Below are positions 6,076 through 37,776 of a stretch of 64,000 nt of DNA, in pieces. Position 1 is the first letter of the stretch. Every line of letters begins with the position of its first letter. Position numbers and translations under genes: made by a program. Origin of the DNA: Candidatus Omnitrophota bacterium (GTDB taxonomy: Bacteria; Omnitrophota; Gorgyraeia; 2-01-FULL-45-10); the NCBI GenBank assembly GCA_903843285.1, contig CAIMPC010000068.1, positions 1,200 through 65,199 on the forward strand, written 5' to 3'. Below the pieces are notes generated by a model. That model saw nothing but the letters and a program-made list of their open reading frames with translations. It made no database searches and was not told where the DNA came from.

Positions 6076-6255
6076 ATTATTTGTATTATATATTATGAAG
6101 GCGTAATATGGAACCATATAATTATCGCCGAATTACCGCAGTGTGATACAATTAGTTACGGACAGACGTTCATAACGATCTGAATCTGTATTGGGCCATA
6201 AGGAGATCGGGCAGATGAGGAGCTTTCTCCGGAAGGGAGGATTTAACCCCGAACC

Positions 6256-7898: not shown

Positions 7899-8587
7899 TG
7901 GAAATGATTATAGTCTTTGCGTCAGCGTTATGGCTCGGTATATTAACTTCAATAAGCCCATGTCCATTGGCCGCCAATGTGGCCGCCATCTCTTTTTTAT
8001 CTAAAAGAGTAACTCATCCGGCCCTTGTATTCATTTCAGGATTGGCTTATACGCTGGGGAGGATGGTTTCATATTGCGTTCTGGGATGGATAATTATAAA
8101 CTCTCTTTTAAGCGTTCCCCAGACGGCCCAGTTCCTGCAGAAATACATGGGTAAGGCTTTAGGGCCCATACTTATCATTACGGGACTTATACTGCTCGAA
8201 ATGATCACTATTTGCATTCCAGGGTTTTCGCTTTCACAAAAACATGGCAATAAGCTTGTGGAATCCGGCGCGTTCGGAGCTTTTCTGCTCGGAATGATTT
8301 TTGCACTCGCATTCTGTCCGATCTCCGCGGCATTATTTTTCGGAAGCCTGATTCCCCTGGCGCTTAAAAGCAAGCTCAGCGTTTTATTACCGATTCTTTA
8401 TGGTGTAGGAACGGGGCTACCCGTCCTTTTGTTTGCTTTCGGTATAGCCGTGGGTATTACGTCGCTGAGTCGCTGGTTTCATCAGATCTCCAGGATTGAA
8501 TACTACACACGGAGAATCACCGGGGCCGTATTTGTGGCAGTGGGGCTGTATTATACAGGGGTATATATTTTTAGATTATTTTATTAG
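7895..8587 (+). CDS. CcdA/DsbD-like transmembrane thiol-disulfide transporter
   Basis: Six TM helices. SISPCPLAANVAAISFL is in the first TM (SPC-P-L, as in CcdA) and FCPISAALFFG is in a later TM. Confidence 0.5.
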   Translation: MMEMIIVFASALWLGILTSISPCPLAANVAAISFLSKRVTHPALVFISGLAYTLGRMVSYCVLGWIIINSLLSVPQTAQFLQKYMGKALGPILIITGLILLEMITICIPGFSLSQKHGNKLVESGAFGAFLLGMIFALAFCPISAALFFGSLIPLALKSKLSVLLPILYGVGTGLPVLLFAFGIAVGITSLSRWFHQISRIEYYTRRITGAVFVAVGLYYTGVYIFRLFY

Positions 8588-8643: not shown

Positions 8644-8778
8644 ATGGAAAATAGCAAGAAGAGCAATAAGGGTGAAACCAAAATAAACAAAAGTGATATT
8701 ATAGCGAGCAGGAAGACGTGCTCGGCAGATGGCACCGGCTTATCGCATTACGTTCTGATGGATAAGAAGACCAAGTAA
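8644..8778 (+). CDS. Small ORF of 44 aa (MENSKKSNKGETKINKSDIIASRKTCSADGTGLSHYVLMDKKTK); candidate precursor or substrate peptide for the downstream radical SAM/SPASM enzyme
   Basis: It has its own promoter and a strong RBS (AAAAGGAGAtgtATG). It ends 21 nt before the rSAM gene. It is too short to appear in the 60-aa ORF track. Confidence 0.35.
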   Translation: MENSKKSNKGETKINKSDIIASRKTCSADGTGLSHYVLMDKKTK

Positions 8779-8799: not shown

Positions 8800-10191
8800 A
8801 TGCCCCATAATAAGATCCCCTCTACGGGCCGGTATGTCAATTCAGGCTCAGGCCCTACGATTCAACCTATCGACATAGGCCATCCGCACTATGTGGGACT
8901 GGTGGACGCTGATACCGCGTTTTGGTCGCTGGTTAGGCGCGACAGCTTGTCCGACGTTCTGCGCGACAGCGCGCTACTCACATCCTACATGAGAAAGAGG
9001 GAATCTTTCCGAAAAGAGATGCACAGGCTTCGCTTCGGATTAAAGCCCTCCGCCGTATATTTTAATATCACCGAAAGATGCAATCTCAATTGCCGTTATT
9101 GTTATATTCCTGGGGATATGCGCCGTAATGGGAAACACATGTCCGAGGATAAGGTGATAGAGGCCCTCCGGACGCTTAAGCAATATTTTAATAAAACGAT
9201 AGATAGAAAATTAGTGCCTAAGATAATTTTCCATGGGGCCGAACCTCTGCTTAATAAAAAAGCATTGTTCACTGCCATTGAAAAATTTGGGAAAGATTTC
9301 ACATTCGGGGTGCAAACGAACACTGTCCTATTGGATGCCGAAACAGTCGCGTTTTTGAAATCGAAAAAAGTAAGCATCGGTATATCACTCGACGGCCCGA
9401 CGGCCGGAATAGTTAACAAAACCAGGGCGAGCTGGTCCGGGGAAGGCGTCTTCGAACACGTTATGAAGGCGATGGAGCTGTTAAGGAGCTACGATGCATG
9501 GAGCGTGATATGCACCGTCACTACCGAAAATATGCGTTCCCTTCCGGGGTTCGTCAATTTTTTACATAAGAATGAAGTTCCGACATGTCTTTTAAATGTT
9601 GTCAGATGCACGCTTCCCTCCGCCCGCAAAATCAAACCCGATGATGCGGTCGTCGCGCGGCACTTTATCGATGCGCTCGAGACGAGCTATAAGCTTTATA
9701 AAGAAAGCGGACGAAAACTGGTGGTGGGTAATTTTGCGAACATATTGATCAGCATACTTGCTCCGACGGCGCGCAGGCTGATGTGCGATATTTCACCCTG
9801 CGGGGGAGGTAGAAGCTTTTTTGCGCTGGCGCCGAGCGGTGATATATTTCCCTGCAGTGAATTTATCGGATTGAAACATTTCAAAGGCGGCAACATTTTT
9901 AAGGATAGCGTAAAAGATATCTTAAAGAGCGGCCCATTCAAACTGGTAACGGAAAGAAAAGTGGAAGATATTGAACCATGCCGCCGCTGTGCCATTCGGC
10001 ATTTTTGCGGATCGCCCTGTCCCGCCGAAGCATATGAGATGAACGGCGGAATGAATAAGACAGGCTCATTCTGCGGGTTCTATGAAGAGCAGGCCCGATA
10101 TGCTCTGCGTCTCATAGCGGATAATAAACATACTGCTTTTCTGTGGGACGGCTGGGATCGCGGCACCAAAGAGATATTTAACGTCATATAG
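8800..10191 (+). CDS. Radical SAM/SPASM-domain protein with a ~95-aa N-terminal extension
   Basis: The CxxxCxxC motif is CNLNCRYC in YFNITERCNLNCRYCYIP. The C-terminal SPASM Cys cluster reads CRRCAIRHFCGSPCPAEAY...SFCGFY. The N-terminal extension before the rSAM core could be an RRE-like domain. Confidence 0.8.
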   Translation: MPHNKIPSTGRYVNSGSGPTIQPIDIGHPHYVGLVDADTAFWSLVRRDSLSDVLRDSALLTSYMRKRESFRKEMHRLRFGLKPSAVYFNITERCNLNCRYCYIPGDMRRNGKHMSEDKVIEALRTLKQYFNKTIDRKLVPKIIFHGAEPLLNKKALFTAIEKFGKDFTFGVQTNTVLLDAETVAFLKSKKVSIGISLDGPTAGIVNKTRASWSGEGVFEHVMKAMELLRSYDAWSVICTVTTENMRSLPGFVNFLHKNEVPTCLLNVVRCTLPSARKIKPDDAVVARHFIDALETSYKLYKESGRKLVVGNFANILISILAPTARRLMCDISPCGGGRSFFALAPSGDIFPCSEFIGLKHFKGGNIFKDSVKDILKSGPFKLVTERKVEDIEPCRRCAIRHFCGSPCPAEAYEMNGGMNKTGSFCGFYEEQARYALRLIADNKHTAFLWDGWDRGTKEIFNVI

Positions 10192-19969: not shown

Positions 19970-20407
19970 ATGAAAAAAATGTTTCTATCCCTATTAATAC
20001 TTACTGCGGCAGTATCCTTAGCATTTGCCGATGCCGGAGAAGATAAACAACCTGAAGCTCAGACACAGCCCCAGGCCCAGCAGAAGATTCCTGCTCCAGC
20101 GCCGGTTGTCGAGAAGATAATAGTTAAGGAAGTGACGCTCAATACCGGAGCGACAGGCTTTGTTAACGGCAAGGTCGCCAGCGTGACGCCTGCGGATATG
20201 CTGACCAGGCCTAAGTCGAGGATAGTTATCGTCGATGGCGCCGGTAATTCAAACGAATTTATTGTGAAGACGCTCGCAGTCGTGTATGATTCGGCCGGTA
20301 AATTTCTGACTCTGAACGATGTAAAGAAGGACCAGGAAGTCCAAGTCAATTATACGGTCAAGAGCGATAAGTCGAAAGAAGCGGCGGCGATAAAGATACT
20401 GAAATAG
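19970..20407 (+). CDS. Secreted hypothetical protein (145 aa)
   Basis: RBS AAAGAGGAGA, then ATG. Signal peptide MKKMFLSLLILTAAVSLAFA. The track ORF from 19805 overlaps the tRNA and is rejected in favour of this start. Confidence 0.5.
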   Translation: MKKMFLSLLILTAAVSLAFADAGEDKQPEAQTQPQAQQKIPAPAPVVEKIIVKEVTLNTGATGFVNGKVASVTPADMLTRPKSRIVIVDGAGNSNEFIVKTLAVVYDSAGKFLTLNDVKKDQEVQVNYTVKSDKSKEAAAIKILK

Positions 20408-22770: not shown

Positions 22771-23664
22771 ATGTATACTGCCTACTGGGGATTAACAGAG
22801 AAGCCTTTCGAAAATACGCCAGACCCTAAATTCATCTACTATTCTCAGAAGCATGAAGAGGCTATGGCGCGTATGCTTTATGTGGTGCGTGAACATAAGG
22901 GCGCGGCCCTACTGACCGGCGAATACGGTTGCGGTAAGACCCTTCTAAGCCGCGTCATAAGGAAAGAGCTCCAGCAGGAAAATAAGTACCAATCCGTCTT
23001 CATACTTGATCCCCACCTGACAGTCAGAGAATTCCTTCGGGAGATAATCTATCAGCTCGGAGTGGACAAAATACCTAAGAACAAACTAGATATATCCCAT
23101 GCATTGAATAAGACCATTCTCGCAAACCATAATTCCGGAAAACATACCGTGCTTGTGGTAGACGAAGCCCAGTCTATTCATAATATCGATATATTTGAAG
23201 AAATGAGACTGCTTTTAAATTATCAACTCGATGCGGCATTTCTGCTCACGATAATACTCTTAGGCGCGCCTGAGCTAAAACAGATGGTTACGGGGATGCA
23301 GCACTTAGTGCAAAGAATGGCCGCAGGTTATCATTTAAACGGATTGAGCGAAGCCGAGACTAAGAATTATATAAATCATCGTTTGCTTATAGCAGGCGCT
23401 AAGAGACAATTATTCACAGACGACTCATACCACGAGATATATCTGCATTCCTACGGGGTTCCCAGGCGTATCAACACTATTTGTGATCTTGCCCTTCTGG
23501 TGGGGTTTAGTAATAACCAAAATGTGATCGATAGAAAGGCCATAATAGATATCAATGAGGATATGGATCTGCCGAAACCCGACATGGAAAATCTATATCA
23601 GCCGTCATCTCTAACACCCCAAGGTGCGCCCGGTCGTTATGCCGGGCAGAAGGTCCACGCATGA
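22771..23664 (+). CDS. ExeA/GspA-like AAA ATPase (COG3267)
   Basis: The N-terminus YWGLTEKPFENTPDPKFIY matches the ExeA signature. Walker A is GEYGCGKT and Walker B is LVVDEAQ. Confidence 0.6.
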   Translation: MYTAYWGLTEKPFENTPDPKFIYYSQKHEEAMARMLYVVREHKGAALLTGEYGCGKTLLSRVIRKELQQENKYQSVFILDPHLTVREFLREIIYQLGVDKIPKNKLDISHALNKTILANHNSGKHTVLVVDEAQSIHNIDIFEEMRLLLNYQLDAAFLLTIILLGAPELKQMVTGMQHLVQRMAAGYHLNGLSEAETKNYINHRLLIAGAKRQLFTDDSYHEIYLHSYGVPRRINTICDLALLVGFSNNQNVIDRKAIIDINEDMDLPKPDMENLYQPSSLTPQGAPGRYAGQKVHA

Positions 23665-24773
23665 TAAAGCTGTCGAATTTATTTAAGAAACATGAGCAGT
23701 CTAAAGATGTGCCGCTTCCTAAGGGTATAAAAGAGGATACGAGGCCGCCCGAAGAGATATTAGCCGCGGAGGCCGTTATAAAAAGATCAACAGACATCCG
23801 CCATCATCAGTCGAGCATTAAGCTTTCACCGGCAATGAATGTGGAACTCGAGAAGGAACGGCCAACGACCCCCAACATAAAGAATCTTTATAATGATCTT
23901 CTGGAGAAGGCGAAGGAGATATATAAATCCGGCCCCGGCACTAAAAGGAATCTGGCCGCAGAAATTCATCCGCTCGTCGAAAAAATGCTCGAGTCCCTAT
24001 CCTCCGGAAGCGATGAATTGCTTCTTATAGTTCTCAGGAATTATCCTAAACCGGAAGATATGCTCTTCTATCACGTGGTCAATATCACTATAATGTCGGT
24101 TGTTGTGGGGCTGGGGCTCGGGTACGAACGCAATCGTTTGTTTGAGCTATGTATCGCGGCTTTCGTTCATGATATAGGGTCAAGAAATCAAGATATATTG
24201 AACAAACCGGATTCTTTCAGTGAAGAAGATTTCGACAAGATAAAGACTCATCCGAACGAGGGCGCACTCACGTTGAGTAAGATAGACCCAAGTCTTAACC
24301 AGAAGATACTCGACGCCGTAAAACAGGAGCATGAGAGGGCCGACGGCTCCGGATACCCGGAAGGGCTGGTATCAGATGAGATTAACGAATACGCCGAGGT
24401 CATAGGGCTCGCTGATGTATATGAGGCGCTTATGCACAACCGCCCATACAGGACCAAATATACATCCATAGACACTATCAGGATAATACTGAAGAATAAG
24501 AAGCTGTTTACCTCTAAGGTTATAAAGGCGTTAATAGAAGCGTTCGGAATATTTCCCATTGAGACGCTTGTGCAATTAAACACTAAAGAGATAGGCGTTG
24601 TTGTAAAGCGCGACCAGGAACTGATATCCAGACCTGTCGTTGACATAATAATCGACTCATACGGCAAAGAAGTGAAACAGCCGAAACGTATAAACCTGGC
24701 GAGCAATCCGGTAATATATATAGATAATTGTGTTAAGCAGGAAGATAAGTATATTAAGACCCCGATCAAATAA
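23661..24773 (+). CDS. HD-GYP domain protein (c-di-GMP phosphodiesterase family)
   Basis: Motifs HDIGS, HPNEGA and HERADGSGYPEGL (HD-GYP signature). Its start overlaps the ExeA-like stop (ATGA). Confidence 0.8.
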   Translation: MIKLSNLFKKHEQSKDVPLPKGIKEDTRPPEEILAAEAVIKRSTDIRHHQSSIKLSPAMNVELEKERPTTPNIKNLYNDLLEKAKEIYKSGPGTKRNLAAEIHPLVEKMLESLSSGSDELLLIVLRNYPKPEDMLFYHVVNITIMSVVVGLGLGYERNRLFELCIAAFVHDIGSRNQDILNKPDSFSEEDFDKIKTHPNEGALTLSKIDPSLNQKILDAVKQEHERADGSGYPEGLVSDEINEYAEVIGLADVYEALMHNRPYRTKYTSIDTIRIILKNKKLFTSKVIKALIEAFGIFPIETLVQLNTKEIGVVVKRDQELISRPVVDIIIDSYGKEVKQPKRINLASNPVIYIDNCVKQEDKYIKTPIK

Positions 24774-24798
24774 ATTGGAAGTAAGGGTATAAAAAGAA

Positions 24799-25245
24799 AT
24801 GAATAAAGTAAATACGATATTATTGGCTATTATCGCGGCGGTGTTCGCCGGGTATGCCCTGTATGTGAATATCCAGCTTAAGGATACGGTAAAACGCTAT
24901 GAGACCTCCGCTACCGACATGGCGGATAAGTTTGAGAAGATTAACGAAGATGTGCTAAGGGCCAGGGAAGAGCTTGCGAAGCAGAAAATATTGGTCGAAG
25001 AGGCTAAGTCTCAGGCGGAAATCGCTAAGGCCGAAGCGGCAAAGATAGTCGAAGAAGCTAAGCAAAAGGCCGAAGAGGCGGTGGTCGCGGCAAAAGAGGC
25101 CGAGCCGGTGAAATTGACTAAAAAGGAGCAGGAAGCCCTCGATGCGAAGGCTAAGGCGGAGGAAGCCAAGGCTAAAGCGGAGGCCCTTATGGGCACGGTC
25201 AATAACGAGCCGAATGCATGGGAAGCGCGCGAGGCACATTTATAG
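24799..25245 (+). CDS. Membrane-anchored coiled-coil protein, Ala/Glu/Lys-rich
   Basis: One N-terminal TM helix, then KAEAAKIVEEAKQKAEEA-type heptads. No enzymatic motif. Confidence 0.4.
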   Translation: MNKVNTILLAIIAAVFAGYALYVNIQLKDTVKRYETSATDMADKFEKINEDVLRAREELAKQKILVEEAKSQAEIAKAEAAKIVEEAKQKAEEAVVAAKEAEPVKLTKKEQEALDAKAKAEEAKAKAEALMGTVNNEPNAWEAREAHL

Positions 25246-25338: not shown

Positions 25339-26250
25339 ATGAATAATAAATTAAAAATAGTAATGATATTTTCGCTAAGCGTCCTGATGCTCGGCGGGTG
25401 CAGATATAACAGCGCCGCTATGAAGGAAGGCGCCAAAAAACATTATGAAAAAGGCGTGAAATACTATGACGATGGCAAATTTAAACAGGCGGATAAGGAA
25501 TTCGATACCGCTAATAACCTGCTCGAAAGGGACAAGAAGATAAATGAGAAGCTTAATAAATCCGCTCCGGAGTCCAGGGGTGAGATAGCGTCCGAAAAGA
25601 CGAACCAGGAGACGTTGGCCAATAGGGGAAAGAGGACGCTGAAACCCCAGTATACTATAGGCGCCGAGGACGTCCTATCTGTGTTCATCTGGCAGAACCC
25701 GGATATGTCGCAGGATGTCACTGTAAGACCGGATGGTAGGATATCGTTTCCTCTTATCGAGGACATAGAGGTAGAAGGCCTGACGATCCCCCAGCTTGAT
25801 AAGGTGATAACAGAAAAGCTGCAAACATTTATAAAATATCCCGAAGTAACGATATCGATCAGGCGTCTGGGCGGTAAGAGAGTCATTGTCCTAGGAGAGG
25901 TTCAGTACCCCGGCGTATACCAGGTCACCGGCACGGAGAGCGTGCTCGAAGCTGTTGCTATGGCGCAGGGCTTCAAAGATAGTTCTCTGGCATCGAGCAT
26001 GATAGTCATAAAGGGCATGTTCTCAGGCAACCCGAGGATTATAAGGGCCAGCGCCAATATGGCATTAAGAGGAATTGGAAGCCAGAATATCAAGCTCGAC
26101 TCCGGAGATGTGGTATTCGTGCCGAAGAAACCTATATCCGATCTTAATTGGCTGGCCACGGAAATATCAGGCCCGATCCTGGCGATCACCGGTGACATTA
26201 CGGCTATTAAGACACTTACTCACGTGGCTTCTAAAACGCTGACAAAATAG
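25339..26250 (+). CDS. wza: Polysaccharide export outer-membrane protein, Wza family (Poly_export plus SLBB)
   Basis: Lipoprotein-type signal (LGGC). The Poly_export motif is VRPDGRISFPLIEDIEVEGLTIPQLDKVITEKL. SLBB-like VIVLGEVQYPGVYQ follows. Confidence 0.8.
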   Translation: MNNKLKIVMIFSLSVLMLGGCRYNSAAMKEGAKKHYEKGVKYYDDGKFKQADKEFDTANNLLERDKKINEKLNKSAPESRGEIASEKTNQETLANRGKRTLKPQYTIGAEDVLSVFIWQNPDMSQDVTVRPDGRISFPLIEDIEVEGLTIPQLDKVITEKLQTFIKYPEVTISIRRLGGKRVIVLGEVQYPGVYQVTGTESVLEAVAMAQGFKDSSLASSMIVIKGMFSGNPRIIRASANMALRGIGSQNIKLDSGDVVFVPKKPISDLNWLATEISGPILAITGDITAIKTLTHVASKTLTK

Positions 26251-26542: not shown

Positions 26543-27670
26543 ATGGAGCGCGTTCACTCCGTTCCGCAGGAAACCTACACCGCATTCAGTAATTCGATTC
26601 ACTCCAAAGTGTTAGAAAAGAACATCCCGATTGATGGGACGATAGAGCTGACCCAGCGCTGCAACTTAAAATGCGTGCAATGTTATTGCTGTCATGACCC
26701 GTCTAAGCGGGAGCTAAGCTATGACGAAATATGCCGTATACTGGACGAGATCGCCGAAGCAGGATGTCTTTGGCTACTGATAACCGGCGGGGAACCTCTA
26801 TTGAGACCCGACTTTTTAGATATCTATATGTATGCAAAAAAGAAGGGTTTTCTAATCACGCTATTTACCAATGCGACATTAGTCACTCCTGAGATATTGG
26901 ATCATCTGAGTAAATATCCGCCTTTTTCTATAGAAGTCAGCGTATACGGCGCGACCAAAGAAATATATGAAAAGATTACGGGGGTCACAGGATCATTTGA
27001 ATCCTGCATGGCCGGGATAAAGCTTATTCTCGACAGAAAACTACCGTTAAAATTAAAGACAATGGCCATGGCATTAAACCACCACGAGGTATCTCAGATG
27101 AAGGAATGGTCCGAAGGCATGGGCATCGAATTCAGGTTTGATGCGATGCTTCACCCGAAGTTAACCGGATTGAAGGATCCGTGGGATGTAAGGCTTTCGC
27201 CTGAGGATGCAGTGGCGCTCGATGGTTCAGACCAGAAGAAGCTCGATGCCTGGCGTGAGGTCTGTAAGCATCCATGGGAGCCATCGCAGAATGGGAGGCT
27301 ATTTACCTGCGGCGCCGGGAAGAATTCATTTCATATCGATCCGTACGGTTATCTCAGGCCCTGCGATATGATGCGAACGTTCAGCTACGATCTGCGTAAG
27401 CACTCATTCCGTGAAGCATGGGTTGAGATGTGCAGTGCGGTTTCGGTCGAGAAAGCCCCCGGTGATTATAAGTGCAGAGGCTGTAAGATGACTTTTATCT
27501 GCAACCAGTGTCCCGGATGGGGATTTCTGGAGAACGGAGATATCTATAGCATATCAGAAAATATGTGTGATGTGGCCCAATTAAGGGCGCGGAAGTTTGG
27601 GGCGGGAAGTGGTAACACAAAGGGAGGTATGTCAAATGAAGAAGAAATCTTATCAAAAGCCCAGCGTTAA
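26543..27670 (+). CDS. Radical SAM/SPASM-domain peptide-maturase-like enzyme
   Basis: The CxxxCxxC is CNLKCVQC in ELTQRCNLKCVQCYC at about aa 40. The SPASM cluster reads CGAGKNSFHIDPYGYLRPC...CRGCKMTFICNQCPGWG. There is no N-terminal RRE, consistent with the separate PqqD protein. Confidence 0.85.
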   Translation: MERVHSVPQETYTAFSNSIHSKVLEKNIPIDGTIELTQRCNLKCVQCYCCHDPSKRELSYDEICRILDEIAEAGCLWLLITGGEPLLRPDFLDIYMYAKKKGFLITLFTNATLVTPEILDHLSKYPPFSIEVSVYGATKEIYEKITGVTGSFESCMAGIKLILDRKLPLKLKTMAMALNHHEVSQMKEWSEGMGIEFRFDAMLHPKLTGLKDPWDVRLSPEDAVALDGSDQKKLDAWREVCKHPWEPSQNGRLFTCGAGKNSFHIDPYGYLRPCDMMRTFSYDLRKHSFREAWVEMCSAVSVEKAPGDYKCRGCKMTFICNQCPGWGFLENGDIYSISENMCDVAQLRARKFGAGSGNTKGGMSNEEEILSKAQR

Positions 27671-27794
27671 AAAGGTGCTCCTGACACCGGAGGACGCGGT
27701 ATTAGCTAATTGCAAAAGAGCTACGGGCAGTAACAAGAGTAGCGGCAGATGCAGAAGCCTTGGAACCTGCCCGAACAGGACGCGGGGCTCATAG
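27636..27794 (+). CDS. Candidate RiPP precursor peptide of 52 aa (MKKKSYQKPSVKKVLLTPEDAVLANCKRATGSNKSSGRCRSLGTCPNRTRGS)
   Basis: The RBS AGGGAGGT and the ATG lie inside the last 35 nt of the rSAM gene, indicating translational coupling. It has a Lys-rich leader and a core with 3 Cys, 7 Ser/Thr and a C-terminal Ser. The track shows the frame from 27597 only as an alternative-start ORF. Confidence 0.45.
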   Translation: MKKKSYQKPSVKKVLLTPEDAVLANCKRATGSNKSSGRCRSLGTCPNRTRGS

Positions 27795-27836: not shown

Positions 27837-28721
27837 TTGCCCTTGAGTAATATTTGTGTTGGGGCAGATGTTCGGTTTAATATCGGCGGTGCCTCGATTC
27901 TGGTATCTGGGCCCAGCCATATGAAATTCAGGATTGACGAATCCTATAGCGGATTCACCGGTATATCGGAACCTGATATCGTTCTGTCCGTTCATGGTCC
28001 GGAAAAAAATATAGCCAAGTATATATCCGGTAGGTTGGTTTTCGATTCAGGTCTTACGTGGCGCCTGAACCGTGACAACGCCAGCCATATCTTCAGTTTC
28101 TACTCCCGGGATTTCGGAAAACTTCCTCATAAAGTAGCGGTGATAGATGAGGATTTCAAATCAGGCGATATCTTTCTCGGAGAAATAGCGGATAATATCT
28201 GTGAGCCTCTCGAATACCCCCTCGATGAAGTTTTAATGGTAAACCTTCTGGCCGCCGGCAGAGGTATCATGGCTCATGGATGTGGCATGAAGATGGGTGG
28301 AGATGGGCTCCTTTTTGTGGGTGTCTCTGGGAGCGGGAAGAGTACGATGGCGAAAATTGCCATGAAGGCTGCGCAAGCCAAAATCCTTAATGACGACAGA
28401 ACCGTTATACGAAAAATGGGCAGTGAATATTTTATTTACGGAACACCGTGGCATGGAGAGATCGATGAGTGTTGCCCGGACCATGCGCCGTTAAAAAAAC
28501 TCTTCTTTATAAAACATGCCAAAGACAATAAGATCCGGAAGCTTTCACCCGCAGATGCCGTCTCCCGCTTTATAAGCTGTTCCTTCCCGCCATTCTGGAG
28601 CGATAAGGGCATGGAATTTACGCTACAATTTTTGTCTGAACTTGTCAGCGACATTCCGGCCTATGAGCTCGGTTTCCTTCCCGACGAACGCGTCCTGGAA
28701 TTGATCGATAAAGATATATGA
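27837..28721 (+). CDS. HPr kinase/phosphorylase C-terminal-domain-like kinase (HprK-related)
   Basis: P-loop LLFVGVSGSGKSTMAKIA, followed by NDDRT...GTPWHGE, as in the HprK C-terminal domain. The start is uncertain: TTG at 27837 or ATG at about 27921. Confidence 0.55.
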   Translation: MPLSNICVGADVRFNIGGASILVSGPSHMKFRIDESYSGFTGISEPDIVLSVHGPEKNIAKYISGRLVFDSGLTWRLNRDNASHIFSFYSRDFGKLPHKVAVIDEDFKSGDIFLGEIADNICEPLEYPLDEVLMVNLLAAGRGIMAHGCGMKMGGDGLLFVGVSGSGKSTMAKIAMKAAQAKILNDDRTVIRKMGSEYFIYGTPWHGEIDECCPDHAPLKKLFFIKHAKDNKIRKLSPADAVSRFISCSFPPFWSDKGMEFTLQFLSELVSDIPAYELGFLPDERVLELIDKDI

Positions 28722-30253: not shown

Positions 30254-30934
30254 TCAAGGCTTCTTATTCCTCCAAATCACCGTCCTGCCATTATTGAGCT
30301 CGGTTTCGAATTCAAGCCAGGGGGCCTCATCAAACAAATATCGATATTGAGGACAGTAGTAGACCGTGTGCGCTCTTCTTGGAGATTTTTCCAGGGAGAA
30401 TTTTATATTATCGAGAACCTTTGCCATGGTATTATGACCGAAGGGGTTATAAAAGAAGAATACGGTACCCAGGTCGATGTTATATGTGGCGGCGTCATGC
30501 GCCACGATCTCGACCGGACAATTAAGTGTCTTAGCGTTTTGCAGATTCTGTCCGGCGACAGCCAGTAATCTCTCGTCCAGCTCTACGCCTATCGCTTTCT
30601 TCAGGTTCTCCGATGCCGCCACAAATAAGGCGCGCCCTTTCCCACAGCCAAGATCTATAAAAACATCTTCCGGAGTCATCTTAAGATAGTCGATTATCCG
30701 TCTCATGTCGGCATACGGTGCGGGTACGTGAGATATCATATCTCTGTGGAGGCTGTTGTCACGCCATAATTGACATTCACCAGTCTCGATTCCGAGGCGC
30801 TTATCCTCATAATGATCTTTGTAGATAGTAGAGATGCGCAATATCTGCCAGTAAAATGCCATCCAGATTTGCAGAAATAGGTTTTTGAACTCCCGCAGAA
30901 GTTTATAGACGAGACTATTCTTTAAATCATCCAT
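30254..30934 (-). CDS. Class I SAM-dependent methyltransferase
   Basis: FIDLGCGKGRALFVAAS is the GxGxG SAM-binding motif. It converges on the + strand operon. Confidence 0.7.
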   Translation of the reverse strand: MDDLKNSLVYKLLREFKNLFLQIWMAFYWQILRISTIYKDHYEDKRLGIETGECQLWRDNSLHRDMISHVPAPYADMRRIIDYLKMTPEDVFIDLGCGKGRALFVAASENLKKAIGVELDERLLAVAGQNLQNAKTLNCPVEIVAHDAATYNIDLGTVFFFYNPFGHNTMAKVLDNIKFSLEKSPRRAHTVYYCPQYRYLFDEAPWLEFETELNNGRTVIWRNKKP

Positions 30935-30948
30935 TGTGCACCTTATCT

Positions 30949-31755
30949 TTAATATTGGGCCAGACTTCCTTCTCGCCGGGCTTTATTAATGCTGTACTTA
31001 AACAGGCAGAGGCTTATAGGAAGAAGCACTATGATGAATAGAAGTAGAAATCCTATCTCCTTATACAACTGCACAAGCGTGTATCCTTTATAAACCGAAA
31101 ACTCGATGGCTCTTATCGCGTAGGTGATGGGCAAAAACTGCGCGAGGAGTTGTAGCCAGGATGGAAGGACCGTTATGGGGAAGTAGACTCCGCTTATGAG
31201 GCCTTCGAGGCTCGAGACTATCCATCCGAATGGGTTACCTCGTTTAAAGATCATTATGAAGCACGCTGAAATTATTCCAAGGCATCCGAATGAGAGTATG
31301 GTCAGAATAAATACTACTATCGTCGACAGTATATTGGTATGAGCAAAATTGACTTTAAATAAGAATACGGCAAGTAATATGTATATGGCCATGTCGATCG
31401 TGGCCAGGACGAGGTTCCATAGTGTAAGCGATAAGAGTATCGTCGATATCTTGGTAGGAGTTACTAATACGGCCTCGAGAGTGCCCTGCATTTGTTCGCC
31501 CCGTATGCGATCGGAAAATGAGCCAAGCCCGACGCCGACGTAACCGAAGAACGCCATGCTCACCAAAACATAAGAGAAGTAATTGACTCCGAATTCCTCG
31601 AGATGCGGTGTTATGCGGCTCCCAAACAGCCTGTCGATGAAAAAATAACCAAGGATGCTAACGAATATTCCGAAGAAATTAAAGAGGAAGGCCATGCCGT
31701 AGCTCGACTCCATCAGGAAGTCTTTTTTTAAGAAAGCGATAGGTTTTCTTAGCAT
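30949..31755 (-). CDS. ABC transporter permease (ABC-2 type)
   Basis: About six TM helices, 268 aa. It sits immediately downstream of the ABC ATPase gene with stop and start overlapping. Confidence 0.7.
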   Translation of the reverse strand: MLRKPIAFLKKDFLMESSYGMAFLFNFFGIFVSILGYFFIDRLFGSRITPHLEEFGVNYFSYVLVSMAFFGYVGVGLGSFSDRIRGEQMQGTLEAVLVTPTKISTILLSLTLWNLVLATIDMAIYILLAVFLFKVNFAHTNILSTIVVFILTILSFGCLGIISACFIMIFKRGNPFGWIVSSLEGLISGVYFPITVLPSWLQLLAQFLPITYAIRAIEFSVYKGYTLVQLYKEIGFLLLFIIVLLPISLCLFKYSINKARREGSLAQY

Positions 31756-32549
31756 TATTTCGCCCCTCCGGTAAGGCGGACGAATATTTCGCCAAGTGAG
31801 GCCGTAGGTAAATTAGTTTCCGCCCGTAATTCTTCCAGCGTTCCGTAAGCGAAAAGCTTGCCTTCATGCAGTATCATAAATATGCCGCCGAAGTCGATAG
31901 CCTCGTCCATGTGATGTGTTGTGAATATAACGGTCTTTCCGTGCTTCTTTACGAGAACGTCCTTAATGAAGTTTCTTAGCTCGAGTGATGAGGCGTAGTC
32001 GAGACTCTTTGTCGGCTCGTCGAGTAACAGGATCTCGGGGTCATGGATGAGCGCGCGCATCAGCGCGAACTTTTGCTGCATGCCGGTCGAGTATGAGTCG
32101 AAGCGTTTATCCTGGTAGGTGACGCCGAATAGCTCGAGCAGCTCTTTTATGCGTTCGGCGGCCTGTTTCTTACCGAGTGAGTACATCGCGGCGAAGAAGT
32201 CGAGGTTCTGCCGCCCGCTCAGGCGCCAGTAGAAACTTCGCTCGCCCGATGTCGCGAGGCCGACGGATGCCTTTATCCGCTCATCATTCTCCCCGAGAAT
32301 CTGGCCGTTGACCTTCACAGATCCCTTGTCGGGGAGGATCAGCGTCGAGATGATCTTTAACAGGGTAGTCTTGCCGGCACCGTTTGGTCCGAGTATGCCG
32401 AGCGTAGAACCTTTGGTGAGCGTAAGCGAGAGTCCGTCGAGTGCGCGTGTGGCGCTCGGCCGTCTGAGCCCGGAGCTGAGCAGTCCCGACAGCGAGAATG
32501 CGGGGGAGAAGTCCTTAGTGACGCCATTAACTTCAAGTATCGTCTCCAT
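31755..32549 (-). CDS. ABC transporter ATP-binding protein
   Basis: Walker A is GILGPNGAGKTT, the signature is YSTGMQQK, Walker B is ILLLDEPT and the H-loop is TTHHMDE. Confidence 0.85.
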   Translation of the reverse strand: METILEVNGVTKDFSPAFSLSGLLSSGLRRPSATRALDGLSLTLTKGSTLGILGPNGAGKTTLLKIISTLILPDKGSVKVNGQILGENDERIKASVGLATSGERSFYWRLSGRQNLDFFAAMYSLGKKQAAERIKELLELFGVTYQDKRFDSYSTGMQQKFALMRALIHDPEILLLDEPTKSLDYASSLELRNFIKDVLVKKHGKTVIFTTHHMDEAIDFGGIFMILHEGKLFAYGTLEELRAETNLPTASLGEIFVRLTGGAK

Positions 32550-32786: not shown

Positions 32787-34715
32787 ATGCCAAAATACGA
32801 ATTGAATGTCCGTGACTACCTGCGTATCCTTCGTAAGCGAAGGCTGGTAGTCATTGTCACGTTTATAGCAGTTCTCATAGGTACGGTTATCTATATATCC
32901 ACTCAGCCCGTCATCTACGACGCCAGCACCACAATCAAAATAGAAGAACGGAAGACCGTATCGGGTTTACTCACCGAGTGGGTACTTTATAGCCCTGCCG
33001 ACGTTATGGAGTCCGAGACGAAGCTCATAAAAGGTTACGAGATCATGAAGCAGACAGCGATCCGTCTGGGAATGATCAACGAACAATCGGATCTTGACAA
33101 TATCAACCGGGCCGTAGGAGAACTGCAGGGTGCTGTAACTACCGAGAGGGTTGGCGGTACCAATATGATCCGTATTATGGTGACTGCCGATACGGCGAAG
33201 AAGGCAATGGAGATTGCTAACGGCGTAACCGAGACCTATATGGTGGAGAACCTGAAAGATAAGGCCAAGCAGGTGAAGCATGCGAGGCTCTTTATAGAGG
33301 AACAATTGACCTCCCTCGAGAACAGGATGAAGACAGCGGAAGATAAAATACGGCTAATAGGCGAAAATTTCGGAGATGTCAGGTTGGCTGAGCCGATAGA
33401 GAAGAAGCTGAACGAACTGCAATTCGATCTGGCGGAGGCAAGCCAGAAATACACCGAGAAACACCCCAGGGTAATACAACTCAGAGAGCAGATAGTCGAT
33501 ATAGAGGCACAGATAAAGGGATTCTCGGGTAAGGAGATCGAATATGCGAGGCTTATCCGCGAGACTGATGTAAATAAAAAATTATATGCGATGCTAAGAG
33601 AAAAGCTCGAAGAGGCCAGAATAACGGAGGCCCAGAAAGTCAGCGATATATCTGTGGTCGATCCGGCCGTTATGCCACTGGCACCTATCTCTACAAATAA
33701 ACATCTGGCTTTGATAGTGGGTATGGTGATGGGAACTGTCTTAGGTGCTTCCTTAGCATTCGTGGTCGAGACCCTGGATACGTCTATAAGCACGATCGAG
33801 GACGTTGAAAGCATGGTCAAGCTGAGAGTGCTCGGCGTAGTCCCGCCGCTTGGCAGGGAGGCCAAATTGAAGCGCGGCTTTTTCAGAGACCTTAAGGAGA
33901 GGATATTTCCTACGGACAATATCCATAGGGATACAGAGGAACCCATATATCTTATAGCGCACTTCGAGCCGAATTCTACTGCCGCGGAAGCATTCCGCAA
34001 TATCCAGACGAATCTAAAGCTCGACCCTACTCAGAAGACGATATTAATAACCAGTTCGGGCCCGAGGGAAGGAAAGTCGAGCATCTCATCGAATCTCGCG
34101 GTGGTTATGGCGCAATCAGGTCTTAGAACGCTTTTAGTATCGGCTGATCTCAGGAGACCAGCACTCGACAAAGTCTTCGGCATAAAACGCGAGCCCGGCA
34201 TGAACGAATATATTACCGGCTCGGCCAGCCTGAAAGAGGTGTTGAATGGTATAGTGGATATAATGGTCGGCGAGATGGACTTTGACGATATTCGTAAGAC
34301 CCCCGGCTTGGATAATATATCGATCATACCTTCCGGCAGACTTTCGTATAATCCGGCTGAGATATTGAAATCGAAGGAAGTTAAGAACCTGATTGAGAAG
34401 GTGAAGAACAGATACGACCTGATAATATTTGACGCACCCCCGGTACTGCCCGTAACCGATGCGAGCCTTCTGGCTCCCACGATGGACTGCGTGGTGCTGA
34501 TATATGAGATCGGACGGACCAGCCGCGAAGCGTTGATACGTACGAAGATACAGCTGGAATCCGTAGGCGCGAAGATAACGGGAGTCGTCCTGAACCACAC
34601 CCAACCCGAAACGGAAGCTGTGATGTCATATCCCTACTACAAATACAGGTACGGATATGCGTCGAAGGAGAGCCCTTTTAATAGAGCGGAAAACAAGACC
34701 AAAACGAGAGTTTAG
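32787..34715 (+). CDS. wzc: Polysaccharide co-polymerase / tyrosine autokinase, Wzc (BY-kinase) family
   Basis: N-terminal Wzz/GumC domain with two TM helices. Walker A is SSGPREGKSS, Walker A' is LLVSADLRRP and Walker B is DLIIFDAPP. The C-terminal Tyr cluster is YPYYKYRYGY. Confidence 0.85.
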   Translation: MPKYELNVRDYLRILRKRRLVVIVTFIAVLIGTVIYISTQPVIYDASTTIKIEERKTVSGLLTEWVLYSPADVMESETKLIKGYEIMKQTAIRLGMINEQSDLDNINRAVGELQGAVTTERVGGTNMIRIMVTADTAKKAMEIANGVTETYMVENLKDKAKQVKHARLFIEEQLTSLENRMKTAEDKIRLIGENFGDVRLAEPIEKKLNELQFDLAEASQKYTEKHPRVIQLREQIVDIEAQIKGFSGKEIEYARLIRETDVNKKLYAMLREKLEEARITEAQKVSDISVVDPAVMPLAPISTNKHLALIVGMVMGTVLGASLAFVVETLDTSISTIEDVESMVKLRVLGVVPPLGREAKLKRGFFRDLKERIFPTDNIHRDTEEPIYLIAHFEPNSTAAEAFRNIQTNLKLDPTQKTILITSSGPREGKSSISSNLAVVMAQSGLRTLLVSADLRRPALDKVFGIKREPGMNEYITGSASLKEVLNGIVDIMVGEMDFDDIRKTPGLDNISIIPSGRLSYNPAEILKSKEVKNLIEKVKNRYDLIIFDAPPVLPVTDASLLAPTMDCVVLIYEIGRTSREALIRTKIQLESVGAKITGVVLNHTQPETEAVMSYPYYKYRYGYASKESPFNRAENKTKTRV

Positions 34716-34770
34716 CGAATGGATAAATGATATGCTGTTGGTGCTTGGTCACGAGTAAGCGGTATGTGTA

Positions 34771-34800
34771 AAGGCGGGGGCTGTCAAAGCCCCTTTATTA
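34771..34800 (+). terminator. Rho-independent terminator after wzc
   Basis: In aaggcGGGGCtgtcaaaGCCCCtttatta a GC stem is followed by a T-run. Confidence 0.5.
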
Positions 34801-34819
34801 GTTTAAGGACTCATATATC

Positions 34820-36190
34820 ATGCTGAATAACAGTAAGGGCCAGGTAGCGTTTACGATCGTAGGTATACTTCTCTTCGTCGCCACGATGCTTCTCCTCACT
34901 ATGATGGGCATCCCGCTCAATATCTCCACGGCGATCCTTATCGGCGGCCTGATATTCGTCATATCGTTCGTAAATACGGATCTCGCTCTCATAATCCTCA
35001 TATTCACGATGCTTCTCTCTCCGGAATTCACCGCGGGCGAGGCTGCGGGTAGATCGATTAAGATCCGTGCTGATGACATATTCATAATAATCATATTTTT
35101 AGGTTGGCTGGCCAAAATGGCTATCAATAAAGAATTAGGTCTTTTAAGAGCCACGAGACTTAATTCTGCGATCATGTCATATATAGTCATATGCGTACTC
35201 GTTAGCGCTATTGCCGTAATAGAAGGCAGGGTAAAACTGCGTTCATCGATCTTTTACCTTCTGAAATATATAGAGTACTTTATCATCTTCTTCATGGTAA
35301 CGAATAATTTAAAGACCGTGGTCCAGGCCAAAAAATATATATTTTACCTTCTATTGACATGCTTTATCGTCAATATTTACGCCCTGGTCAGTGGTTCAAT
35401 AAGCGGAAGAGTCAGCGCGCCGTTTGAGTCGGGAGCGGGAGGCGAGCCGAATACATATGCGGGATATCTTATCATCATGATGTCGCTTACGCTTGGGCTT
35501 ATATTTAATGCATCGCCAGGTAGAAAACGGTTGGCCCTGGTATGTCTTCTAGGTATGTCGGCGGTTGCGCTTCTCCAAACATTATCGCGGAGTGGGTGGT
35601 TGGGTTTCTTTGTCGCGTTGGCGGCATTTATTTACTTCAACAAGAAGCACAGAATCATCATGATAGCGGTGCTGCTGGCTTCAATTGTTATTATTCCACT
35701 CATCGCGCCTAAAGCTGTATACCAACGGGTAAGTGATACGTTCGTGACTTGGAAGACTTATAAGGTCATGGGATCAAGGATAGGTCTGGATGAATCGGCA
35801 TCGACACGAATAGAGTCATGGAAGGTAGGATTTAAGCGCTGGGCGAAACGACCGATATTAGGCTTCGGCATACCGGCCGGAGTCACGATAGATAACCAGT
35901 ATACGCGCGTCTTGAATGAGACGGGATTAGTAGGCTTTACGGCCTTCTGCCTTATCTTATTTGCCATATTCAGATCGGCGTATTCTGTCTATACGTCTAT
36001 GTACGACAATGATTTCGCGCAGGCGATTAGCATAGGGTTTCTGTCGGGCTTTATGGGGTTATTGCTATTCTCGGCCGCCGCCGCAACCTTCATCATCATC
36101 CGCATCATGGAACCTTTTTGGTTCATAGTCGCCATTATAGCGGTGTTGCCGGAGCTGGAGACCGAGGGTGTGGGGGCCGACGTTATATGA
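34820..36190 (+). CDS. O-antigen ligase / Wzy-like polymerase family membrane protein
   Basis: At least 10 TM helices. The Wzy_C-like segment is LLQTLSRSGWLGFFVALAAFIYF. Confidence 0.6.
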   Translation: MLNNSKGQVAFTIVGILLFVATMLLLTMMGIPLNISTAILIGGLIFVISFVNTDLALIILIFTMLLSPEFTAGEAAGRSIKIRADDIFIIIIFLGWLAKMAINKELGLLRATRLNSAIMSYIVICVLVSAIAVIEGRVKLRSSIFYLLKYIEYFIIFFMVTNNLKTVVQAKKYIFYLLLTCFIVNIYALVSGSISGRVSAPFESGAGGEPNTYAGYLIIMMSLTLGLIFNASPGRKRLALVCLLGMSAVALLQTLSRSGWLGFFVALAAFIYFNKKHRIIMIAVLLASIVIIPLIAPKAVYQRVSDTFVTWKTYKVMGSRIGLDESASTRIESWKVGFKRWAKRPILGFGIPAGVTIDNQYTRVLNETGLVGFTAFCLILFAIFRSAYSVYTSMYDNDFAQAISIGFLSGFMGLLLFSAAAATFIIIRIMEPFWFIVAIIAVLPELETEGVGADVI

Positions 36191-37776
36191 AGACCAGCCA
36201 CGCAGCGCAGGGCAGTATCTCCGGTAAGATTATGAAGAACACAGCTTATAACATATTGGGAAAGCTGTGGTGGATCCTGATAGCGATTTTTCTGACCCCG
36301 TATATAGTCTCGAAGATCGGCATAGAGCGATTCGGTGTCTGGGCGATAGTGGGCGTTATCACGGGTTATTTTGGGCTTCTCGATTTTGGAATAGGGATGT
36401 CATTTATTAAATATATAGCCGAGTTTCACACGAAGGGCGAGTATGATAAGATAAACCGACTTATCGACACGGGCTTCACTCTATACGCGATATTTGCCTT
36501 TATGTGCTTTTCTCTGGTATTCATTCTCAGAGGTCCGATCCTTAAATTATTGAATGTTCCAGTTTACCTTCATCACGAAGCCGGCATAGTTTTGCTGATA
36601 GGAATCGCTCTCTTTGGCGCAGCTAATGCGATGAGTCCTTTCCTGGCTATCCAGGGAGGATTACAGCGCATGGACATATCCAATAAGATCGGGATCGGGC
36701 TGTCCGTGATAAATATCGCCGGAACGGTATATTTTTTGGAGTGCGGTTACGGGATCATAGGCCTGATGGTGAACAATGTTATAGTATTCACCGTGATGGC
36801 CGTTATCAACGTGATCGCCGCCCATAAGCTCATTCCGGCTATACGCTTCAGAGCCTTCCATCTCGACAAGTTAATATTTAGGAAGTTGTTCAGCTTCGGA
36901 TATAATATGCAGATCTCCAAGATCTCCGGCCTAATATCGGCCCAGACCGATAAGATCCTGATATCCTGTTTCCTATCCATCGGACTGGTAACATTTTATC
37001 AACTGGGCAGTTCCATCGTTTATAACGCATGCTCGTTCGCCTATGTGCTATCCTCGGCGCTGATGCCGGCATTCTCCGAAATAGATGCTCTCGGCGATAG
37101 GGCCAGGCTTGTCGAGGCGTATTTGAGGAGTGTAAAGTACCTGAGCTTTTTCACTGTCCCGGTATTCATATTCATGGCCATCTCGGCAGGAGAGATAATG
37201 TTCATATGGATGGGGTTCGGGTACGGCCAATCAGTACTTGTCATACAGGTACTGGCGTTTGCACTCCTAGTATACACGCTCGCGCAATCCTCATCATCGG
37301 TGTCGGCGGCCATCGGTAAGCCGCAGCTTCTGGCGATGGGCTCACTTATCATAATATTCCTGAACGTGATATTGAGCGCGGTATTCATAAAGGCCTTCGG
37401 CTTCCTGGGAGCGGCCTGGGGAACGCTGATAGCTGTGAATGTGGGTACGGTATATTTTCTGAACCAGTTGCATAAAGATATAAGAGTCAGCACCCGGTCT
37501 TATATAGGCACGACTGTGCCTTTCTTCCTGGCGTGCGCCGCGGCGACGGCCGTAATATTTGTCGTATGGAATATTCTCGGACGCTTTGTTAATTTCTCCG
37601 GTATTGGGAGGTTATGGTCCATGGCGTTCTTCCTTGCCAGAGGGACAATATTCCTACTTACTTATTTCTTATGCGTGAAGGCGCTCTCGCCGTTCCGGGC
37701 GAAAGAGCTCGAGGTGATAAGAGAGAAGATACCGGTTCTCGGGTCGGTAATGGTTAAGATGATAAGCCGTCAATAA
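36187..37776 (+). CDS. wzx: Polysaccharide biosynthesis protein / flippase (Wzx, MOP superfamily)
   Basis: About 14 TM helices, 529 aa. The ATG at 36187 overlaps the upstream stop (ATGA). The track ORF from 36118 is a frame extension. Confidence 0.65.
   Translation: MKTSHAAQGSISGKIMKNTAYNILGKLWWILIAIFLTPYIVSKIGIERFGVWAIVGVITGYFGLLDFGIGMSFIKYIAEFHTKGEYDKINRLIDTGFTLYAIFAFMCFSLVFILRGPILKLLNVPVYLHHEAGIVLLIGIALFGAANAMSPFLAIQGGLQRMDISNKIGIGLSVINIAGTVYFLECGYGIIGLMVNNVIVFTVMAVINVIAAHKLIPAIRFRAFHLDKLIFRKLFSFGYNMQISKISGLISAQTDKILISCFLSIGLVTFYQLGSSIVYNACSFAYVLSSALMPAFSEIDALGDRARLVEAYLRSVKYLSFFTVPVFIFMAISAGEIMFIWMGFGYGQSVLVIQVLAFALLVYTLAQSSSSVSAAIGKPQLLAMGSLIIIFLNVILSAVFIKAFGFLGAAWGTLIAVNVGTVYFLNQLHKDIRVSTRSYIGTTVPFFLACAAATAVIFVVWNILGRFVNFSGIGRLWSMAFFLARGTIFLLTYFLCVKALSPFRAKELEVIREKIPVLGSVMVKMISRQ

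Follow-up and report, generated by a model that had tools for sequence, protein, structure and literature searches.

Does the short open reading frame (ORF) that begins inside the 3' end of a radical S-adenosylmethionine (SAM)/SPASM gene of an Omnitrophota bacterium encode a peptide, and if so, what would the neighbouring enzymes do to it? The locus lies in a stretch of 64,000 nucleotides of contig CAIMPC010000068.1 (Candidatus Omnitrophota bacterium), and this whole stretch is called the window in the following. We found that the peptide gene is real, conserved and syntenic. Its product is almost certainly the substrate of the neighbouring radical SAM enzyme and of a serine-kinase-like protein, and it truly belongs to a large precursor family that has no name and goes with an uncharacterised radical SAM-kinase cassette.

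A conserved peptide gene at the radical SAM stop codon

Direct reading of the window gives an ORF of 52 codons (27636..27794, plus strand) starting with ATG at 27636-27638 and ending with TAG at 27792-27794, which bears out the sequence and the coordinates of the initial annotation. The product is MKKKSYQKPSVKKVLLTPEDAVLANCKRATGSNKSSGRCRSLGTCPNRTRGS. Its 8 K and 5 R against 1 E and 1 D amount to a net charge of +11 and not of about +12 as first estimated.

For the comparative analysis 80 related genome loci (designated by L numbers where they have to be told apart) were collected with a profile of the radical SAM protein, and small ORFs were sought in them by tblastn and ORF extraction. A hidden Markov model (HMM) of the peptide, built from 120 database relatives, detected a homologous small ORF directly after or overlapping the radical SAM stop codon in 52 of the 80 loci; all 32 loci with the most similar radical SAM protein carry it at this position. 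The loci with the ORF span a dozen or more phyla, with Omnitrophota, Desulfobacterota, Nitrospirota, Acidobacteriota, Chloroflexota, Aminicenantes, Verrucomicrobiota and Actinomycetota among them. A search for a conserved small ORF downstream of homologous radical SAM genes had been suggested as a check on the initial annotation. Its outcome supports the claim of a precursor next to the radical SAM gene, as the homologous loci keep a small ORF there with the same three cysteines and the same terminal serine.

An independent HMM was made from 118 family members, leaving out the window peptide and its closest database homologue (51 aa, 70% identical). When all 1,808 six-frame segments of the window were searched with this model, the ORF was the sole significant match (E 1.3e-8), followed by one with E 0.075. 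The next match, a 23-aa segment at 20056..20124, was considered as a second copy of the peptide and taken as chance. A word-indexed profile search of 5.8 billion proteins returned 432 matches, all unnamed and lacking Pfam domains. Exhaustive hmmsearch of 1.84 billion cluster representatives yielded 2,154 matches at E<=1e-3 and 207 at E<=1e-10. No model of Pfam or NCBIfam matches the window peptide, and 30 relatives gave at most faint noise.

The initial annotation had described the ORF as unannotated and as missing from an ORF track with a minimum of 60 aa. The first statement holds for that track but not for public assemblies, where 15-19 metagenome contigs carry a gene call for exactly the same 52-aa protein, listed as hypothetical with neither a name nor a Pfam domain. 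The second is correct if an ATG start is required; with TTG starts permitted, however, the same frame becomes a 65-aa ORF (27597..27794).

The relatives share a signature consisting of a basic N-terminus, the block [YW]-x-K-P-x-L-R-x-I-E-L-A-A-E-E-V-L-A-V-G-C-K, 12-15 residues rich in Gly, Ser and Pro, a Cys, 4-5 residues, a Cys, 3-4 residues and a final G-S. Conservation is highest in the leader block KPxLRxIELAAEEVLAVG (80-98%), whereas the Gly/Ser/Pro-rich core is variable apart from the fixed C, K, C, C and G-S. In window numbering P9, C26, K27, C39 and C45 are invariant, and S52 reaches a conservation of at least 90%. Of 264 relatives, 257 (97%) terminate in Ser and 6 in Thr; in 92% this final residue is preceded by Gly. 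Exactly three Cys are present in 109 of 120 relatives. The window peptide is an outlying member with the leader SYQKPSVKKVLLTPEDAVLANCK, in which the family motif [YW]xKPxL takes the form Y6-Q-K-P9-S-V11; its Cys spacings of 12 and 5 and its tail of 7 are all inside the family ranges.

In a sister subfamily the leader reads KKWxKPELIVLxRGxPEExVLxxCK, and four or five Cys are frequent. Several of the related loci encode multiple divergent precursors that have their leader and a terminal Ser in common, namely four copies in L034 and two each in L038, L062 and L066.

In a group of distant Clostridia loci (L053, L073, L076, L078, L082, L085, L087 and L057) the radical SAM protein is 27-33% identical, and the gene order is kinase-like, radical SAM, PqqD where all three are present. 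The peptide HMM found no match in these eight loci. In L057 a 107-aa ORF (6071..6394) follows the radical SAM gene; it begins with MRYEKPKM, its last residue is Ser, and it may represent a longer precursor type.

The arrangement where the gene begins differs in part from what had been claimed. The ORF shares 35 nt with the end of the radical SAM gene, and its start codon indeed lies within them; the Shine-Dalgarno sequence, however, is situated 43-50 nt before the radical SAM stop. In L001, the radical SAM protein of which is 65% identical, AAGAGGAGG is found at a similar distance (N8) from the peptide ATG. There the ATG lies 16 nt beyond the radical SAM stop without any overlap, and the frame starts with MKKKVYQKPE (ATG AAG AAG AAG GTC TAT CAA AAA CCC GAG) before the contig ends. 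Translational coupling to the radical SAM gene, as originally proposed, is therefore not established: the peptide has a strong Shine-Dalgarno sequence of its own, and the overlap is not kept in relatives. Classical coupling by termination and reinitiation was considered as well and is unsupported, the overlap being 35 nt long and not conserved.

Homologues of the radical SAM protein align only to about residue 353. The tail of about 22 aa that follows (residues 354-375, …GAGSGNTKGGMSNEEEILSKAQR) has no counterpart, and this nonconserved tail covers the Shine-Dalgarno sequence and the start codon of the peptide. Because the tail lacks a homologous counterpart and the L001 gene ends 16 nt before the ATG, the overlap looks like a lineage-specific read-through of the radical SAM frame and not like a conserved coupling device. 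A promoter and terminator scan of 24.7-32.9 kb gave counts no higher than in shuffled sequences and revealed no attenuator downstream of the peptide gene.

The cassette and its likeness to known systems

The conserved cassette consists of a PqqD-family protein, the radical SAM/SPASM protein, the peptide, a P-loop protein resembling HPr kinase (HprK) and a signal-peptidase-like protease (Table 1). PqqD is found in 65 of the 80 loci and the kinase-like protein in 64. For the peptidase the number is 48, and most of these proteins stand alone, with about 150-190 aa; its fusion to a nucleotidyltransferase is confined to the window (with the loci L002 and L004 of the same organism), L008, L009 and L011. 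The methyltransferase was present in none of the 80 loci; it is a possible tailoring enzyme, and its membership in the cassette is doubtful. Close homologues of the ABC transporter, a probable exporter, adjoin the cassette only in the Omnitrophota loci L009 and L011 (E 1e-105 and 1e-82). In the sister subfamily (KKWxKPELIVL…CK) the kinase-like domain is fused to a second, N-terminal radical SAM domain, forming proteins of 650-695 aa. Both activities are therefore tied to one substrate there.

Table 1 Features of the window and fused proteins of related loci
Feature	Position	Strand	Basis and remarks
PEP-CTERM-system ATPase	22771..23664		exopolysaccharide locus
Polysaccharide export protein (Poly_export)	25339..26250	+	just 5' of PqqD
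PqqD-family chaperone (stand-alone RiPP recognition element), 93 aa	26260..26541	+	Pfam PF05402, E 1.1e-17
Radical SAM/SPASM peptide maturase, 375 aa	26543..27670	+	PF04055, E 4e-23; weak SPASM (PF13186) match
Shine-Dalgarno sequence AGGGAGGT	27621..27628	+	direct sequence reading; 7 nt 5' of the peptide ATG
Peptide ORF, 52 aa	27636..27794	+	direct sequence reading
Putative leader, residues 1-24, MKKKSYQKPSVKKVLLTPEDAVLA	27636..27707	+	Y-x-K-P-x-[LIV] motif and acidic PEDAVLA block; boundary uncertain by a few residues
Putative core, residues 25-52, NCKRATGSNKSSGRCRSLGTCPNRTRGS, and stop	27708..27794	+	C26-K27, C39, C45, terminal G51-S52
HprK-like P-loop kinase-like protein (ScmC-like), 294 aa, TTG start	27837..28721	+	weak PF07475, HprK_rel_B and PEPCK matches
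S24/S26 signal-peptidase-like domain (~1-110) fused to PF14907 nucleotidyltransferase (~210-417), 510 aa	28718..30250	+	TIGR02228, PF00717; PF14907, E 1.4e-34
Class I SAM methyltransferase	30254..30934	-	Pfam methyltransferase matches
ABC-2 permease	30949..31755	-	PF01061/PF12698 (precomputed annotation)
ABC ATPase	31755..32549	-	PF00005 (precomputed annotation)
Wzz/GNVR chain-length protein	32787..34715		exopolysaccharide locus
Radical SAM-kinase-like fusion, L036	6101..8122		
Radical SAM-kinase-like fusion, L039	943..2904		
Radical SAM-kinase-like fusion, L069	920..2938		
Radical SAM-kinase-like fusions, L050, L058, L063 and L070			

Four groups of known systems resemble this cassette. The phosphorylated and phosphoglycosylated lasso peptide systems (paeninodin PadeA/K, pseudomycoidin PsmK/PsmN, Bradymonas BsfA/B1/K/N) share with it a leader with a putative motif of the Y-x-x-P-x-L type, a stand-alone PqqD/B1 protein, a homologous HprK-type kinase, a nucleotidyltransferase that is sometimes fused to the leader protease, an ABC exporter and, in paeninodin, a C-terminal Ser as the target. 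Over 83 aa the window PqqD shares 29% identity with BsfB1, a lasso B1 protein (pairwise E 1e-12). In contrast to these systems, a radical SAM/SPASM protein and a signal-peptidase-like protease stand in place of the cyclase and the B2 protease, and the window core has three invariant Cys. No lasso cyclase (the C protein resembling Asn synthetase) was found among the genes at 22.7-34.7 kb or among the gene families common to the 80 loci. The cassette contains no transglutaminase-like B/B2 protease, its sole protease being of the S24/S26 signal-peptidase-like type. The window peptide has no Asp or Glu after residue 20 that could accept a macrolactam. A classification as a lasso peptide was rejected on account of the missing cyclase and B2 protease and the lack of Asp/Glu at core position 7-9.

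The SynChlorMet cassette (ScmC, the PqqD-like ScmD and the radical SAM/SPASM proteins ScmE and ScmF; TIGR04248, TIGR04250, TIGR04251, PF27840) likewise combines a PqqD-like protein, radical SAM/SPASM proteins and a ScmC-type P-loop protein. The best NCBIfam matches of the window PqqD are ScmD, at the top of the list, and the lasso PqqD chaperone, yet both are under the cut-off. The window proteins reach 43 of 100, 70 of 400 and 63 of 400 bits for ScmD, ScmE and ScmF, respectively, and no ScmC model is among the NCBIfam matches of the kinase-like protein at E<=0.01; a weak match to ScmC (PF27840) is contained in the precomputed annotation. The SynChlorMet cassette has two radical SAM proteins, whereas the window has one, and an assignment to it was rejected on these scores together with the single radical SAM protein. 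The loci of the sister subfamily hold two radical SAM domains and thus resemble SynChlorMet in this respect. According to the curators' description, the SynChlorMet precursor was not identified.

The maturases of sactipeptides and ranthipeptides (SkfB, AlbA, StsB, PapB, CteB) are also radical SAM proteins with a seven-Cys SPASM domain that act together with a short Cys-containing peptide. There, however, the recognition element is fused to the N-terminus of the enzyme, whereas the window has a separate PqqD; their precursors are unrelated in sequence, a kinase does not belong to these systems, and the window scores are far under the equivalog cut-offs, and membership in a known sacti- or ranthipeptide family was rejected. 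Mycofactocin (MftA/B/C) and pyrroloquinoline quinone (PQQ; PqqA/D/E) biosynthesis resemble the cassette by a short peptide with invariant C-terminal residues, a stand-alone PqqD-family chaperone and a radical SAM/SPASM protein. They differ in that MftA and PqqA lack a three-Cys core and that neither an HprK-like kinase nor a signal-peptidase-like protease is involved. The system is thus hybrid-like, combining phosphorylated lasso pathways with radical SAM/SPASM maturation, and is a member of neither.

Predicted maturation of the peptide

We consider it probable that the ORF encodes the precursor of a ribosomally synthesized, post-translationally modified peptide (RiPP) that is processed by PqqD, the radical SAM protein, the kinase-like protein and the peptidase. 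The locus shows features of a RiPP precursor: a short ORF beside the enzymes, a conserved leader followed by a variable core, and a RiPP recognition element (PqqD) in the cluster. Kinase and chaperone and, less certainly, the leader are, as judged by sequence comparison, homologous to parts of lasso-type systems, and the catalytic motifs are intact.

The chemical steps, their order, the cleavage site and the export are what we infer from these homologies. PqqD would bind the leader of about 24 residues, with its Y-x-K-P-x-[LIV] motif and its acidic EE(D)-V-L-A block, and would present the peptide to the enzymes, by analogy to BsfB1. The radical SAM/SPASM protein would modify the core, most likely by forming intramolecular thioether links of the sacti or ranthi type from the three invariant Cys. 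The HprK-like protein would phosphorylate the invariant C-terminal Ser, as in paeninodin, and in this organism the PF14907 nucleotidyltransferase of the fusion protein may extend this phosphate in the manner of PsmN in pseudomycoidin. The signal-peptidase-like domain would cut off the leader 2-3 residues before the first Cys, and the adjoining ABC-2 transporter could export the product.

The radical SAM protein has an invariant CX3CX2C motif (C40/C44/C47) in 37 homologues. Seven C-terminal Cys (C256, C274, C311, C314, C320, C323 and C342, arranged as GX4C and CX2CX5CX2C) are likewise invariant in these homologues, and by this pattern the region is a full SPASM domain. The radical SAM domain begins near residue 34 and the protein lacks an N-terminal recognition element, in keeping with the presence of PqqD as a protein of its own. 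Among solved structures SkfB (E 1.8e-22) and PqqE are closest to the radical SAM protein; SuiB, CteB (N-terminal) and anSME (full-length) match more weakly. In NCBIfam MftC, AlbA, StsB, PqqE and PapB are matched, all far under the cut-off. The best full-length match is the mycofactocin maturase MftC (95 vs 265 bits, residues 28-321), and none of the curated cut-offs for AlbA, StsB, SkfB, PapB and SCIFF is reached (82/850, 81/625, 60/300, 54/340 bits). From these data the chances that the radical SAM protein forms thioethers appear about even.

We considered three alternatives for the fate of a genuine peptide. First, the radical SAM/SPASM protein could make no Cys thioethers and act instead on the C-terminal Gly-Ser, join residues through C-C or C-O bonds, bring about epimerisation or oxidise Cys, in which case the Cys might be disulfide or metal ligands. 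MftC acts on Val-Tyr and anSME oxidises Cys. The proximity to MftC in the full-length comparison and to PqqE and anSME would suit this alternative, although all these matches are far under the cut-offs; so would the pairing of the peptide with a stand-alone PqqD and its invariant C-terminal residues, both as in MftA/PqqA. We regard it as rather unlikely, however. The three Cys are invariant at fixed spacing in more than 250 sequences, the top solved relative is the thioether-forming SkfB, and the core has no conserved aromatic, Asp or Glu acceptor, which speaks against chemistry of the cyclophane or QhpD type but does not count against a sactionine.

The second alternative concerns the kinase-like protein. 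Its P-loop reads GVSGSGKST in the window and is kept as GxSxxGK[ST] in relatives. A profile of 24 sequences of the kinase family matches the HPr kinase structures 2qmh/1jb1 (E 2.3e-5) over 63 residues, extending beyond the P-loop. In hhalign the family profile aligns with the characterised lasso-precursor kinase BsfK over 148 columns (probability 98.3%, E 1.1e-14; BsfK sequence taken from PMC10368454). The kinase-like protein is homologous to BsfK on the strength of this alignment, and kinase activity is predicted. The link between the C-terminal Ser and HprK-like kinases, which had been drawn in the initial annotation, is thus supported by the prevalence of the terminal Ser in 97% of 264 relatives, the kept P-loop and the homology to BsfK.

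BsfK phosphorylates a lasso precursor with the help of its PqqD-type B1 protein, and BsfB1 speeds both phosphorylation and leader removal (PMC10368454). In paeninodin precursors the C-terminal Ser is the residue phosphorylated by the HprK-type kinase, which shows little other specificity; in pseudomycoidin the nucleotidyltransferase PsmN glycosylates the C-terminal phosphate, and lasso clusters are known in which that nucleotidyltransferase is fused to the leader protease (PMC8498205).

Instead of persisting in the product, the phosphate on Ser could be transient and be eliminated to dehydroalanine, followed by Cys capture (lanthionine-like) or by hydrolysis to a C-terminal Gly-amide. Such a succession of phosphorylation and elimination is well established for class III/IV lanthipeptide synthetases. 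The near-invariant Gly-Ser end would suit amide formation, and the nucleotidyltransferase that could act on a persistent phosphate is missing from most loci. This course is very unlikely all the same: the conserved cassette contains no lyase-like domain, and the homologous lasso kinases leave a stable phosphoserine (PMC8498205, PMC10368454).

The processing of the leader can be compared with two models. The family motif KxxYxKPxL aligns with YKKPQL of the lasso leader BsfA (hhalign E 2e-4, probability only 47%), and 3 of 30 members give a faint match to the NCBIfam model lasso_PadeA_fam (E 0.058). Both the YxxPxL motif of lasso leaders and a rule of Thr, Ile or Val at position -2 of the cleavage site are documented (PMC10368454). 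The peptidase domain exceeds the curated cut-off for signal peptidase I of the archaeal/ER type (S26B; TIGR02228, 57.2 bits vs cut-off 51.85), and its motifs GxSMxP…GD…HR…GD, which contain the catalytic Ser and His, are kept in 41 of 42 homologues. It is likely cytoplasmic, as inspection by eye reveals no obvious hydrophobic anchor at the N-terminus. If the spacing of lasso leaders holds (Y at -17), the cut would precede A24 and Val would occupy -2, fitting the -2 rule; under the -3/-1 rule of signal peptidases it would follow A24. Either site is a guess by analogy.

Several observations weigh against a RiPP precursor processed in the way proposed here. The two rules put the predicted cleavage one residue apart. 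The chemistry cannot be transferred to the radical SAM protein from any characterised maturase, because its scores are far under every cut-off, and the sactisynthases score no better than MftC and PqqE, neither of which makes thioethers. BsfK phosphorylates Ser3 of the core and not a terminal Ser (PMC10368454), so the target residue of the kinase family is not fixed. In the Anaerolineae relatives L020 (1733..1885, …APLP) and L026 (6206..6385, …AVTG), whose degenerate leader reads …SSVLSVC without CK, the terminal Ser is missing and the kinase-like gene is kept, which weakens a strict rule linking kinase and terminal Ser. With 8 K/R among its 28 residues, the window core is basic to an unusual degree for a family whose norm is rich in Gly and Ser. 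The nucleotidyltransferase, the methyltransferase and the ABC transporter are not conserved across the family. Lastly, expression and modification of the peptide are predictions from sequence.

Genomic surroundings and significance of the family

The cassette sits within an exopolysaccharide locus of the PEP-CTERM/XrtA type (22771..25245 and 32787..37776), which also holds an HD-domain protein, a Wzy-like protein and a flippase. This setting leads to the third alternative, that the peptide is no exported natural product and serves as a scaffold or cofactor precursor or as a regulatory or structural partner of the exopolysaccharide locus. In the window the cassette lies between the polysaccharide export and Wzz/GNVR genes, near the PEP-CTERM-system ATPase. 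A few other loci have a polysaccharide export gene (L008, L051, L072) or a Wzz-like gene nearby (six loci), with exopolysaccharide-type genes at 3792 and 8991..10922 in L008, and PQQ and mycofactocin are examples of cofactors made by a trio of PqqD, radical SAM protein and peptide. Most of the 80 loci, however, have no polysaccharide genes beside the cassette; the dedicated protease and, in close relatives, the ABC exporter point to a released peptide, and two to four divergent precursor copies, as found in several loci, are typical of secreted RiPPs. We therefore hold this alternative to be most improbable. Finally, the ORF is short, overlaps another gene and has no curated family match, but the chance that it is an untranslated random frame in the radical SAM 3' end and spacer is virtually nil, such a reading being effectively refuted by the comparative data, in which the amino-acid sequence is kept from phylum to phylum, some residues being invariant, and the ORF is syntenic and has a strong Shine-Dalgarno sequence.

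Two further radical SAM/SPASM loci were noticed in the window. One is a RiPP-like pair already covered by curated models: a 44-aa ORF (MENSKKSNKGETKINKSDIIASRKTCSADGTGLSHYVLMDKKTK, 8644..8778, plus strand) matches the modified peptide precursor CbpA (TIGR04164, 58 bits vs cut-off 35). It lies 21 nt upstream of the gene of the peptide-modifying radical SAM protein CbpB (8800..10191, plus strand; TIGR04163, 684 bits) and is also shorter than 60 aa; unlike the peptide of the radical SAM-kinase cassette, CbpA is recognised by a curated model. Just upstream of this pair, 7461..8587 (plus strand) encodes an ArsF-family nitroreductase subunit and an ArsG-family efflux permease (NCBIfam, above cut-off). 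A third radical SAM/SPASM protein of 383 aa (51351..52502, plus strand) reaches the cut-off of no curated family. Its neighbours are a methyltransferase, a DegT-type aminotransferase and a GT4 glycosyltransferase of the exopolysaccharide locus, and it may be sugar-modifying rather than peptide-modifying.

Returning to the peptide as a RiPP precursor, we tentatively propose that it and its 2,000-plus relatives form an undescribed RiPP class, a proposal we hold to be possible rather than probable. In this class a lasso-type module (a YxxPxL-like leader, PqqD, an HprK-type kinase and sometimes PF14907) would be joined to a radical SAM/SPASM protein and a cytoplasmic signal-peptidase-like protease; the product would be cross-linked through its three Cys, phosphorylated at the C-terminal Ser and further decorated in some lineages, and the family would be the SynChlorMet-type substrate. 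No description of a system combining a radical SAM protein with an HprK-type kinase, or of the peptide motif, was found in the literature searched; many papers in subscription journals are outside this search, and an earlier description is possible.

RiPP discovery is limited by the difficulty of spotting short precursor genes. A very widespread, uncharacterised radical SAM/SPASM cassette, which is found chiefly in uncultured phyla (including Omnitrophota, Acidobacteriota, Nitrospirota, Desulfobacterota and Chloroflexota), now has a precursor that can be named and carries a clear signature, and a profile is available to annotators for a peptide that is at present labelled merely "hypothetical protein". 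With the precursor named, the enzymology is open to co-expression, both for the action of a SPASM protein on three fixed Cys and for an HprK-type kinase outside lasso pathways. The cassette also indicates that the module of leader, recognition element and kinase known from lasso peptides is portable between RiPP classes.

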